A stretch of 64,000 nucleotides of DNA from positions 55,242,001 to 55,306,000 of the forward strand of contig NC_086377.1 of assembly GCF_036588685.1 (NCBI RefSeq), written 5' to 3'. This stretch comes from Mytilus trossulus. Taxonomy: Eukaryota. Both the position numbers and the translations under genes were made by a program. The notes below the pieces were generated by a model, which saw only the letters and a program-made list of their open reading frames with translations, had not been told where the DNA came from and did no database searches. This document shows, one piece after another, positions 16,714-19,251 of the stretch; the first letter of the stretch is position 1; every line of letters starts with the position of its first letter.

Positions 16714-19251
16714 ATGAATACCCAACAAGAAATTATAATGTTGAAAAAGGAATTGTTTAATTTAATGGAAAAAGTCAGGAGATTGGACAAAAAAGAAAGA
16801 GCATCACATCAAACTATTGAAAAGGTAAGTGCAAATGGTTTTTTTTTTTTTTTTTTTTTATTAATATTTCTAATGATGATATGTTAAACGATCAGGTTGA
16901 TTTCTTGTTCTGTTTGATCTTCTTGGCTGATTCTTGTTTAACAAATAATACACATAGGTTGAAAACTGTTTACAATATTTTTTGAACTTTCTAGAAATAA
17001 TTAAATGTCTTCCGGTTGTTAAAAAGTAAATGTTCTGTAAGTACCCTATCAAATCTTCTCTAAAAATTGGATTTATTGGTAGAAGGTATAGAACACCAAT
17101 AACACAAACTGCCAAAATGTCTGGAATGAAAGAAAAAAATCAAATTGAAGAAATTATATTAGTATGTTAAAAAGGAGATTACTTTTGTTTCCTTTCATTT
17201 AAAACACAAAATTCAACCTCTGATGATAAATGAGATGTAATGCTAGGTACCCTTTTTAACTCAATACTATTTACATGATATGATTTTCTCTTTTTACAAT
17301 AAGTACATAAAAACTTAACAAAAGAAACAAATAAAATTGTTAAAGAAAACACAGAAAGACAAACGACTACAATTATCCATTTCCTAGGACTTTCTGTTCC
17401 TTCGTTAGCTGTAAAAAAAAATATTGTTTATATCAATACTTGCTTAATTTATGATAAAAGCTTTATTTTGGAATAAATGGTATATTTTATTTCTTTCTTT
17501 TCTCCCACTTACATAATCTTAAATGCTATGTAAATTAAATGATTTTCTTATTTTATTTTAATTTTAAAATCATTAAAATTAATACTTACAATATATCCCA
17601 TTGATGTGAGTGGTGTTTCCTTCTTCTTCTTCTTCTATTTCTTTCACCCCAATTATAGTGCTTATTCCTATTTAAATAAAATAAATATTTACTATCAAAC
17701 ACTATAAAAAAAATTCTCTTTTTCTTGAATGTTAATTTACATGTTAGAAGTGTGGTTTATTTTCTTTATTGTCTTTACTTAAATATATGATAATATATAC
17801 ACATATCTTACCTAGTGGCATTTTTTCTGTGGATGTTACATCTTTGCTGTAAGTTTCAATGGTTGTGTCCTGAAAAAGATAACCATATCAATGAATAGTA
17901 AACATTATCTTAACTGTTTATTTATTTTTTTATTTTTTTCTTCTTTTAGAATGAAGTTATTGATTTAACGTCTTCCAATGAAGAGGAAGCGATGGATTTT
18001 GAACAGAGTGCTGCTTGTAAAAGCAATGGTGCATGTGGAAGCACCACTCCTAGTAAAAGTGAACAAGAAGATGTAAGTATAACGCATAACTCTTTTATAA
18101 ATGTAGTTCTTTATATTACAATAATCATAATCAAAATATATTGTTTTAACATGAGAAAAATGTAATTTATAACTAATGAAATAAAGATATTTTTTTTTTC
18201 TTAAAAGTTTATAAATTAAATGTTTGGTATAGATTACTTCATTTACCTAGACATATATCTCACTATGTTATTTTCCTTTAAAAAGGAGATAATTAGTTCA
18301 TCATTTCTATGTATTTACATGTACATATCATTACAGACATTAGAAAGAGATATAAAACAAGCTAGTGAGATATATCTCAATGTGAGTATTTAAAATATAT
18401 ATTTTTTAATTTTTAATTTCATCATTAACATGATTAATTCATTTCTTTTTAATATCATTATTGTAAATCATCAAATTATATATCACGTGGTTAATTTCCT
18501 TAGATGGTCACATGATTTACATTTCCTAATATGGTATACAGAAATATCACGTGCAATCCTTATATGGTTTAACTTCCTAATATGGTCGACATGCTAACCG
18601 TTCGACTACTTTTTCACTTGTAAAATCTAATCAAACACAATGTACTTACATACGATGAACATTCTTCCCCATTCACCACTATAATTTTCCCTTGCACTGT
18701 GTCACATAGCTCTTTACTAGATAATGATAGTTCGAAAACACAAGAGGCTTTCACATTGCGCACATTTTCAATCTGATCACTGTTCATTATATGGTTCATC
18801 AACACTCTGTTGATAGATCCTTCTATCTCTCCACTAAAGACTTTCTTGACATCATCTCGACAATCTAATATGTCTTCACTTCTATAACATTCAGCTGTAT
18901 TTGTTGCAACACTTCCCTCATGGCTAAATGACAATAAACAACTCACGACAACAATCAAAAACATGGCGATCATCTTCAATTTTCTATAGAGTGTGAAAGG
19001 TGGAGGTCAAAGGTGACGACACGTGAGTGAATAAAGGAAAGCTTTTATTATTTTTATCTGATTAAAAGAACGATTTTGTTTTAAAGAAAAAAAGAATTTC
19101 ATCATATTTTGTTTTGTTTTCTTATCACTTATTTAAATTTTATTTATTACTTAAAAACGAATACTTTATTACAATTGTATATATGTTTTAGGAACCAATG
19201 GAAGTGGACCTGATTGATACTGTATTAGATGACCAAAAAAGACTATTTTAA
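16714..19251 (+). CDS. Four-exon gene, 112-aa acidic protein with N-terminal coiled coil and VIDLT motif
   Basis: join(16714..16824,17950..18072,18337..18381,19192..19251). Donors GTAAGT, GTAAGT, GTGAGT; acceptors TTTTAG, TTACAG, TTTTAG; all phase 0; no internal stop; AATAAA near 19272. Confidence 0.75.
16870..17120 (-). CDS. Candidate alternative last exon of the membrane protein gene
   Basis: Acceptor TTTCTTTCATTCCAG at 17121 in phase 1, matching the donor at 17590. Encodes ILAVCVIGVLYLLPI...RRSNRTRNQPDRLTYHH-stop, followed by AATAAA. Confidence 0.55.
17179..18973 (-). CDS. Four-exon type I membrane glycoprotein, 229 aa
   Basis: complement(join(17179..17408,17590..17667,17812..17869,18650..18973)). 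Donors GTAAGT, GTAAGA, GTAAGT; phases 0,1,1 are consistent. Signal peptide, Cys-containing ectodomain, Thr/Glu-rich stalk with an NTT sequon, TM WIIVVVCLSVFSLTILFVSFV, then CKKRK and a cytoplasmic tail. Confidence 0.8.

Follow-up and report, generated by a model that had tools for sequence, protein, structure and literature searches.

A spliced membrane-protein gene with alternative last exons, conserved across Mytilus Polinton families, and its probable antisense partner

Nematode Mavericks carry intron-bearing cargo genes (wasp and krma) in a 2-5 kb region between the terminal inverted repeat (TIR) and the integrase, and their core genes are intronless (10.1101/2022.07.12.499685). The genes of intact vertebrate Mavericks are described as lacking introns (PMC8097293), and introners invade dinoflagellate elements (PMC11957031). 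Because of the nematode cargo and the dinoflagellate introners, introns alone are not new in such elements. Polintons are nevertheless annotated by open reading frame (ORF) calling and described as intronless, and arms that look 'empty' are therefore ignored. Here we describe such an arm in a 22.9-kb Polinton of Mytilus trossulus, which spans -2690 to 20220 in the coordinates of the window, the 64,000-nucleotide stretch analysed (NC_086377.1, positions 55,242,001 to 55,306,000). The arm lies between the integrase and the right TIR, has a GC content of 24-29%, and holds a spliced gene for a predicted membrane protein on the minus strand and, very probably, a small spliced gene interleaved with it on the plus strand. 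The strongest new result is that the alternatively ended membrane gene, as read from sequence, is conserved across Polinton families.

Nematode cargo is GC-rich, poorly conserved and derived from host gene families, whereas this AT-rich arm belongs to no known family and its design is conserved across distant Polinton families; a high-GC, poorly conserved gene of a host family was not what we found here. In this comparison, alternative last exons and antisense interleaving occur only in the mussel arm. The window element resembles vertebrate Mavericks in its AGTAGT..ACTACT ends, its 6-bp duplication and the accessory regions around the core modules, but differs from these intronless elements in its multi-exon accessory arm. 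Adintoviruses are animal Polintons with a chromodomain integrase; their products further include motif-bearing Oncoid proteins, IAP homologues and membrane-active proteins, and the accessible sections of that literature (PMC8502044, PMC11071296) describe no spliced gene, type I membrane gene or gene bearing a SUMO-interacting motif (SIM). Those of three further sources (PMC12220804, 10.64898/2026.10.13.758929, 10.1101/2024.01.15.575659) add nothing on spliced Polinton genes. Overall, the literature outside subscription papers and supplements yielded no account of such a pair of genes, of Polintons with alternative last exons or of SIM proteins encoded by Polintons. An earlier note on this DNA had called an interdigitated spliced pair at this site unusual, since Polinton core genes usually lack introns. 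This applies to the antisense interleaving, which is absent from that literature, and not to the introns, as nematode Mavericks carry intron-bearing cargo at the same place.

The same note likened the arm to an adenovirus host-interaction region. Adenoviruses encode E3 membrane glycoproteins and small nuclear E1A/E4 proteins near a terminus, outside the core, and use splicing, poly(A) choice and motif-bearing tails. The comparison gains support because the minus-strand product reads as a type I membrane glycoprotein, judged by hydropathy. No sequence or fold link to these adenovirus proteins was found, the modelled ectodomain is solenoid-like rather than Ig-like, and the arm is interleaved on opposite strands.

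The minus-strand membrane gene and its relatives

The minus-strand gene corresponds exactly to RefSeq LOC134718928 and has five coding exons (Table 1). The peptides of exons 1, 2, 3 and 4b are substrings of XP_063437842.1 (isoform X1, 236 aa), and exon 4a was predicted from the DNA before it was matched in isoform X2 (XP_063437844.1, 229 aa) and in M. edulis XP_071139878.1. For all eight exons of the earlier note the order and openness hold, as do the coordinates that it gives, with near-consensus donors, AG acceptors and compatible phases; its count of four exons per gene stands for the plus strand and is one short for the minus strand, where exon 4a had been overlooked. In M. galloprovincialis three RefSeq models, each on a chromosome of its own, run into exon 4b, two of them identical at 231/236 and 235/236 residues. 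RefSeq isoforms are generally based on transcript alignments. The two last exons encode different membrane anchors and tails, the helix of exon 4a reaching a hydropathy of 2.8 over 19 residues. We regard it as almost certain that this gene is real, spliced and located inside the Polinton beside the TIR. A 13-nt minus-strand mini-exon (donor 17512) was rejected, as it breaks the phase with exon 4a and occurs in neither RefSeq isoform. A strong minus-strand acceptor at 18984, 10 nt upstream of the ATG, may mark a 5' non-coding exon.

Seven other Polinton families were fetched for comparison. The design of the membrane gene recurs in family d, whose integrase shows 43% identity to that of the window element, and in family a (39%): the first exon, of 324 nt and phase 0, encodes a signal peptide and four cysteines and is followed by two exons for the stalk and by two last exons in phase 1. 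Both family d isoforms are annotated independently in RefSeq (LOC134718566 X1/X2). In family a the design was read from the DNA; this family has nine near-identical copies, and a minor-capsid match lies 14-17 kb away from eight of these. Since families with integrases only 39-43% identical have this design in common, the gene is, on sequence evidence, an old Polinton gene and not fresh host cargo. Profile-profile comparison of the ectodomains of the window group and the a/d group gave E=4e-4 over 82 columns, with the four cysteines aligned.

The tails are conserved separately. The exon 4b motif has counterparts in family a (RRSNRISIRPQRLTY; 3/10000 shuffles) and family d (RARNQPDRLMYY; 2/5000 shuffles), and the general form RRSNR....P.RLTY, or a variant, is present in three families. 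The exon 4a tail matches that of family J (0/5000 shuffles), a form also annotated in M. californianus RefSeq. Comparisons of 4a with 4a for families a and d were not significant (807/5000 and 1358/10000 shuffles), nor were the cross comparisons of 4a with 4b among the window and families a and d.

Further first-exon homologues were found on short ENA/Logan contigs, and every named relative is from Mytilus. An IMG/VR search gave no relatives, Pfam gave nothing above cut-off for either the membrane gene or the plus-strand gene, and no host gene family was found for the membrane gene. Scans for signal peptides found none in the fetched parts of families b, f and g, and one ORF, lacking a donor, in family c. 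Multi-domain Mytilus proteins with ectodomain repeats (P0001-P0004, P0013) were considered as host paralogues and set aside, as they look like models stitched over tandem relic units (compare locus J). Family e has a membrane gene of similar design (L100:1458-2413; P0058), spliced and with signal peptide, stalk and transmembrane segment, whose tail carries a PSAP late-domain-like motif (Pfam Gag_p6, E=0.004, below cut-off); the PolB of that family does not match the window PolB.

The AF2 model of the ectodomain has a pLDDT of 92 (72 for family d) and suggests a short disulfide-capped solenoid of 88 residues. Eight of the ten top fold matches in one search are leucine-rich repeat (LRR) proteins. 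GPIb-beta (3rfe), a small extracellular LRR protein, likewise combines a short disulfide-capped solenoid, a stalk and one helix, and matches both the window and family d models at Z 4.4 (rmsd 3.5 over 80 and 64 residues); this Z is below trust level, identity is 6-8%, and Pfam detects no LRR in the membrane protein. Atlas leads for LRR likeness reach only 0.80-0.81, and the atlas search with the window protein was empty. Foldseek against PDB and BFVD returned no match at E<=0.001. The LRR likeness is a lead only, because the fold lists are weak. Clamp-loader matches in a PDB sequence search (E 0.006) were judged to be chance.

The probable plus-strand gene and the interleaving

The four plus-strand exons are all open and in phase 0, with AG acceptors, and encode 112 codons and a stop. 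Comparison with relic copies points to selection on the protein. Exon 4 differs from relic A1 by eight synonymous codon changes and one non-synonymous change (p=1e-4 against an expectation of one-quarter synonymous), and four further copies show 84-95% amino acid identity. When A1 is combined with a single B copy for each exon, and A2, C, F and the remaining B copies are omitted as non-independent, mismatches fall 14/4/22 by codon position (p=0.002), and 126 relic codons contain no stop. Exon 2 is tandemly repeated in a relic with indels of 3, 6 and 9 nt, two of four tandem copies having an additional 1- or 2-nt gap. Exons 2 and 3 are found joined in VDH91395.1 of M. galloprovincialis. The predicted product is small and acidic and contains VIDLTSS; SIMs consist of a hydrophobic core with an acidic or serine flank, and similar stretches are LIEISSDE in an exon of family J and IVITSSESED in a family d ORF that has no intron. 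Exon 1 was also compared with a coiled-coil ORF of family d, and homology was not accepted (210/5000 shuffles). In our judgement the gene is very probably real and spliced.

The coding exons of the two genes do not overlap, and the plus unit encloses the whole of the minus unit. The 2.7-kb arm is rich in strong donors (GTRAGT), with seven on the plus and four on the minus strand, where first-order Markov resampling (2000 replicates) predicts 0.8 and 1.5; in the left arm, PolB and the core modules there are 0-1 per strand. The gene model leaves four of the seven plus-strand donors unused. One of these ends a possible 33-nt phase 0-0 open exon (17816-17848), directly antisense to minus exon 2; the others are at 17037, 17606 and 19023.

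The best independent support for the plus gene is the layout of family J, and it is positional. Family J integrases are 48-63% and ectodomains 28-33% identical to those of the window. The family J copies compared here are relics. All five J/I units carry an antisense last exon (starting NMEVD) 124 nt ahead of the ATG of the membrane gene. Four of these units have an intact first donor, and three of the four also contain an antisense phase 0-0 exon of 45-57 nt located 325-333 nt into intron 1; the corresponding window distances are 219 nt and 269 nt. Relic K retains the antisense last exon only. No antisense partner was detected beside the membrane gene in families a and d. Hence the interleaving is not required for the membrane gene, and it arose or was kept in one branch only. 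From the sequence comparisons, the interleaving is likely real.

C5, which makes up 88 of the 1299 Mb, holds all arm relics of the window family and of family J. In many of these relics single exons are tandemly duplicated; exon 2 of the plus gene occurs five times at C5 30.215-30.218 Mb. This concentration could reflect a Polinton graveyard, a small-RNA cluster or search bias.

Proposed roles and competing explanations

We consider it rather probable that the arm as a whole is a spliced accessory module, in which a membrane glycoprotein with an exchangeable anchor and tail is accompanied by a likely antisense gene for a small acidic protein, predicted to be a nuclear SUMO binder. Choice between the two poly(A) sites would select the isoform and so swap the membrane anchor and cytoplasmic tail. 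X2, with its strong helix, KKRK and conserved R-x-P/S-S-I-T-S tail, would likely reach the cell surface, where its LRR-like ectodomain might bind a host receptor or ligand in the manner of adenovirus E3 membrane proteins. X1, with a weak helix and an Arg-rich tail, would likely be held at the endoplasmic reticulum or inner nuclear membrane, and its RRSxR..P.RLxY motif could grip nucleosomes. The chromatin-binding site of foamy virus Gag (YNLRPRTYQPQRYG; PMC12125541 Table 1; PMC9040877) has, like the exon 4b tail, an arginine anchor and after it QP.R and an aromatic residue (family d tail, LPLRARNQPDRLMYY). This likeness was drawn by eye, the mussel peptide ends a predicted membrane protein, and its binding is a prediction; a nucleosome grip by X1 is accordingly a rather doubtful proposal. 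The plus-strand protein would likely resemble SIM-bearing early proteins of nuclear DNA viruses, which disarm SUMO-based silencing; provided that it is made, we put the chances that it counters such silencing at about even. Because one unit is contained in the other, transcribing both from a single template at the same time would lead to collision, and alternating use is likely; that the two follow an early/late order is possible, though we lean against it. Taken to its full extent, the analogy would give mollusc Polintons an adenovirus-like RNA-processing programme overlooked by ORF-based annotation, with a poly(A) switch in one ancient gene between a surface receptor and an inner-nuclear-membrane tether for chromatin or the viral genome, and with an antisense SUMO-binding gene driven into the opposite phase by transcriptional collision. 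The nuclear-membrane form, with its foamy-Gag-like arginine anchor, would then serve integration or egress. We think this complete picture unlikely.

Several observations weigh against our reading. On the plus strand, the genome searches gave no relative for exon 1, and no protein record contains the whole plus product although the opposite strand is annotated in RefSeq: six candidates gave two matches, both partial, and VDH91395.1 has a different N-terminus and reads through the exon 3 donor. Synonymous to non-synonymous changes against relics number 2 to 14 in exon 2 and 1:4 and 3:3 in exon 3, leaving exon 4 as the main source of the purifying signal. Splice dinucleotides are kept in 25/27 cases in relics, which is weak evidence because the aligned introns (A1, 90.7%) are as conserved as the exons (84-91%). 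Of the family J antisense exons, the last shows weak likeness to the plus exons (109-176/5000 shuffles) and the middle one none. Splicing is read from RefSeq models and from conservation. An index of sequencing runs gives 24 that hold part of the arm; among the 20 listed, five are recorded as RNA (shares 0.30, 0.10, 0.09, 0.07 and 0.06), which we do not count as support for splicing. For the membrane gene, the family d first exon scored E=1.1 against a plain profile built without family d, and the fold searches were weak and LRR-rich, with best Z scores of 4.4 and 5.0 and none at 8. The localisation of X1 and X2 and the binding of SUMO or nucleosomes are predictions.

In an alternative account the membrane gene alone codes for protein, and the plus chain is a gene in decay, an antisense RNA that codes for nothing or a gene with another first exon. 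The missing whole record and exon 1 relative, the divergent VDH91395.1, the four unused donors and a GC donor at exon 3 of relic B would all fit it. We hold it to be improbable, in view of the 8:1 synonymous bias of exon 4, the avoidance of changes at the second codon position, the codon-sized exon 2 indels, the uniform phase 0 of the exons and the same interleaved layout in family J. The membrane protein itself might act in virion release or entry (budding, envelope or attachment) rather than in host immunity, with X1 tying the genome or capsid to the membrane. Nematode Mavericks gained a single-pass fusogen with a signal peptide (10.1101/2022.07.12.499685), the family e gene of like design has its PSAP tail, and the membrane gene is kept across families as a life-cycle gene would be. 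On the other hand, the ectodomain has 88 residues against 866 aa for MFUS-1 and matches no viral fold, and its identity between families is 25-30%, below the 37-45% of capsid genes, as expected of a host-facing gene; we rate a virion role at about the same low level.

A third account, recent capture of host cargo in the manner of wasp and krma, shares the position between integrase and TIR and the host-type introns, and could draw on the weak likeness to extracellular LRR proteins and on several relics with no core gene in the 10-70 kb fetched. It appears very unlikely, because all intact-looking copies examined are situated within a Polinton or close to one, the damage or truncation seen in the close relics A, B and D leaves a TIR start in some of them, and the design is common to families with integrases 39-55% identical and belongs to no Pfam family. 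An ancient host origin of the membrane gene is possible.

An accessory module facing the host is our preferred reading, and it suggests, by analogy, that supposedly intron-free elements hold a hidden adenovirus-like set of host-interaction genes. A gene design and alternative tails that outlast a fall to ~40% integrase identity would represent a conserved class of spliced, host-facing genes, which would argue that Polintons of bivalves live through the cycle of a true nuclear virus. Among the mussel membrane genes that RefSeq lists as 'uncharacterised', some would be viral. Two annotated isoforms, a short tail peptide and junction reads as a marker of activation offer handles on the contact between Polinton and host.

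The surrounding Polinton

The earlier note's placement of the pair inside a Polinton, beside the TIR, was confirmed. The TIRs are 946 bp each (right versus left 99.4% identical), the element ends in AGTAGT..ACTACT with the 6-bp duplication TCTGAA on either side, features used to recognise Mavericks (PMC8097293), and it encodes a retroviral-like chromodomain integrase. The PolB label rests on catalytic motifs, because Pfam PolB and PDB searches of the region gave no match. A 221-aa ORF with the Walker A motif GPTQSGKT, just outside the window on the upstream side, is presumably the packaging ATPase. We take the capsid and core proteins to be so from gene order, which is common to seven other Polinton families; the capsid ORFs are conserved and in the expected order, and had no Pfam or PDB sequence match to a double or single jelly-roll. 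Protease-like ORFs are present in sister families, and those of four families match nothing in the window copy or the C12 copy when an adenain-like protease is sought. An insertion of ~4 kb with short inverted ends (7627-11674) breaks the major capsid frame, and the window copy is young but likely defective.

Table 1 Features of the spliced arm and the surrounding Polinton, in window coordinates
Feature	Position	Strand	Remarks
Plus gene, exon 1, predicted amphipathic helix	16714..16824	+	open, ATG, gtaagt donor; least supported exon
Plus gene, exon 2, acidic	17950..18072	+	SIM-like VIDLTSSNEEE; gtaagt donor
Plus gene, exon 3	18337..18381	+	45 nt, phase 0-0, gtgagt donor; within membrane-gene intron 1
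Plus gene, exon 4 (EPMEVD...)	19192..19251	+	upstream of membrane-gene start
CCAAT and TATAAAT	16657..16671	+	upstream of plus ATG, duplicated ~294 nt upstream; putative promoter
AATAAA for plus gene	19292..19297	+	in inner end of TIR; putative use
Membrane gene, exon 1, signal peptide and four-cysteine ectodomain	18650..18973	-	324 nt, 108 codons, phase-0 donor; identical in RefSeq X1 and X2
Membrane gene, exon 2, Thr/Ser-rich stalk	17812..17869	-	58 nt, phase 0 to 1
Membrane gene, exon 3, acidic stalk	17590..17667	-	78 nt, phase 1 to 1; N-glycosylation sequon at residue 145
Membrane gene, alternative last exon 4a (isoform X2)	17179..17408	-	strong transmembrane helix, KKRK, tail LKRVPSITS..SEVEF
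Membrane gene, alternative last exon 4b (isoform X1)	16870..17120	-	weaker hydrophobic helix, Arg-rich tail
Exon 4b tail motif	16879..16923	-	RRSNRTRNQPDRLTY; conserved in families a and d
AATAAA for exon 4a	17072..17077	-	~100 nt past 4a stop, within exon 4b; putative use
AATAAA for exon 4b	16857..16862	-	8 nt past 4b stop; putative use
Right TIR	19276..20220	.	ends ACTACT, then target duplication TCTGAA; left TIR upstream of window
Chromodomain integrase	13625..14803	-	Pfam Chromo E=1.8e-9 (above cut-off), rve E=1.9e-5 (below cut-off)
Presumed protein-primed family B polymerase (PolB)	2901..7145	+	two frames here; motifs DANNLY, KLLNNSIFG, FTDTDS
Likely virion module (minor capsid, basic core protein, major capsid)	11663..13628	-	from gene order and comparison with C12 copy

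Four elements of ~10 kb have the same TIR (G000 C2:20.68 Mb, C11:22.90 Mb, C12:47-57 kb (L046) and C14:25.15 Mb), and their minor capsids score identically. The C12 element, the one examined, has kept its genes for the ATPase, the integrase and the capsid; PolB and the spliced arm are missing from it, and left-arm genes occur again at its right end. Such elements are likely non-autonomous derivatives. ORFs past PolB in families a (L089:1918-2415, minus strand) and g (L106:3124-3579, minus strand) contain an internal hydrophobic segment and look type II membrane-like. In family f a gene on C8 that we take to be PC4-like (L105:5232-5604, minus strand) has an apparent GT-AG intron, so that splicing would not be confined to the membrane gene; the same element also has a BIR-like ORF.
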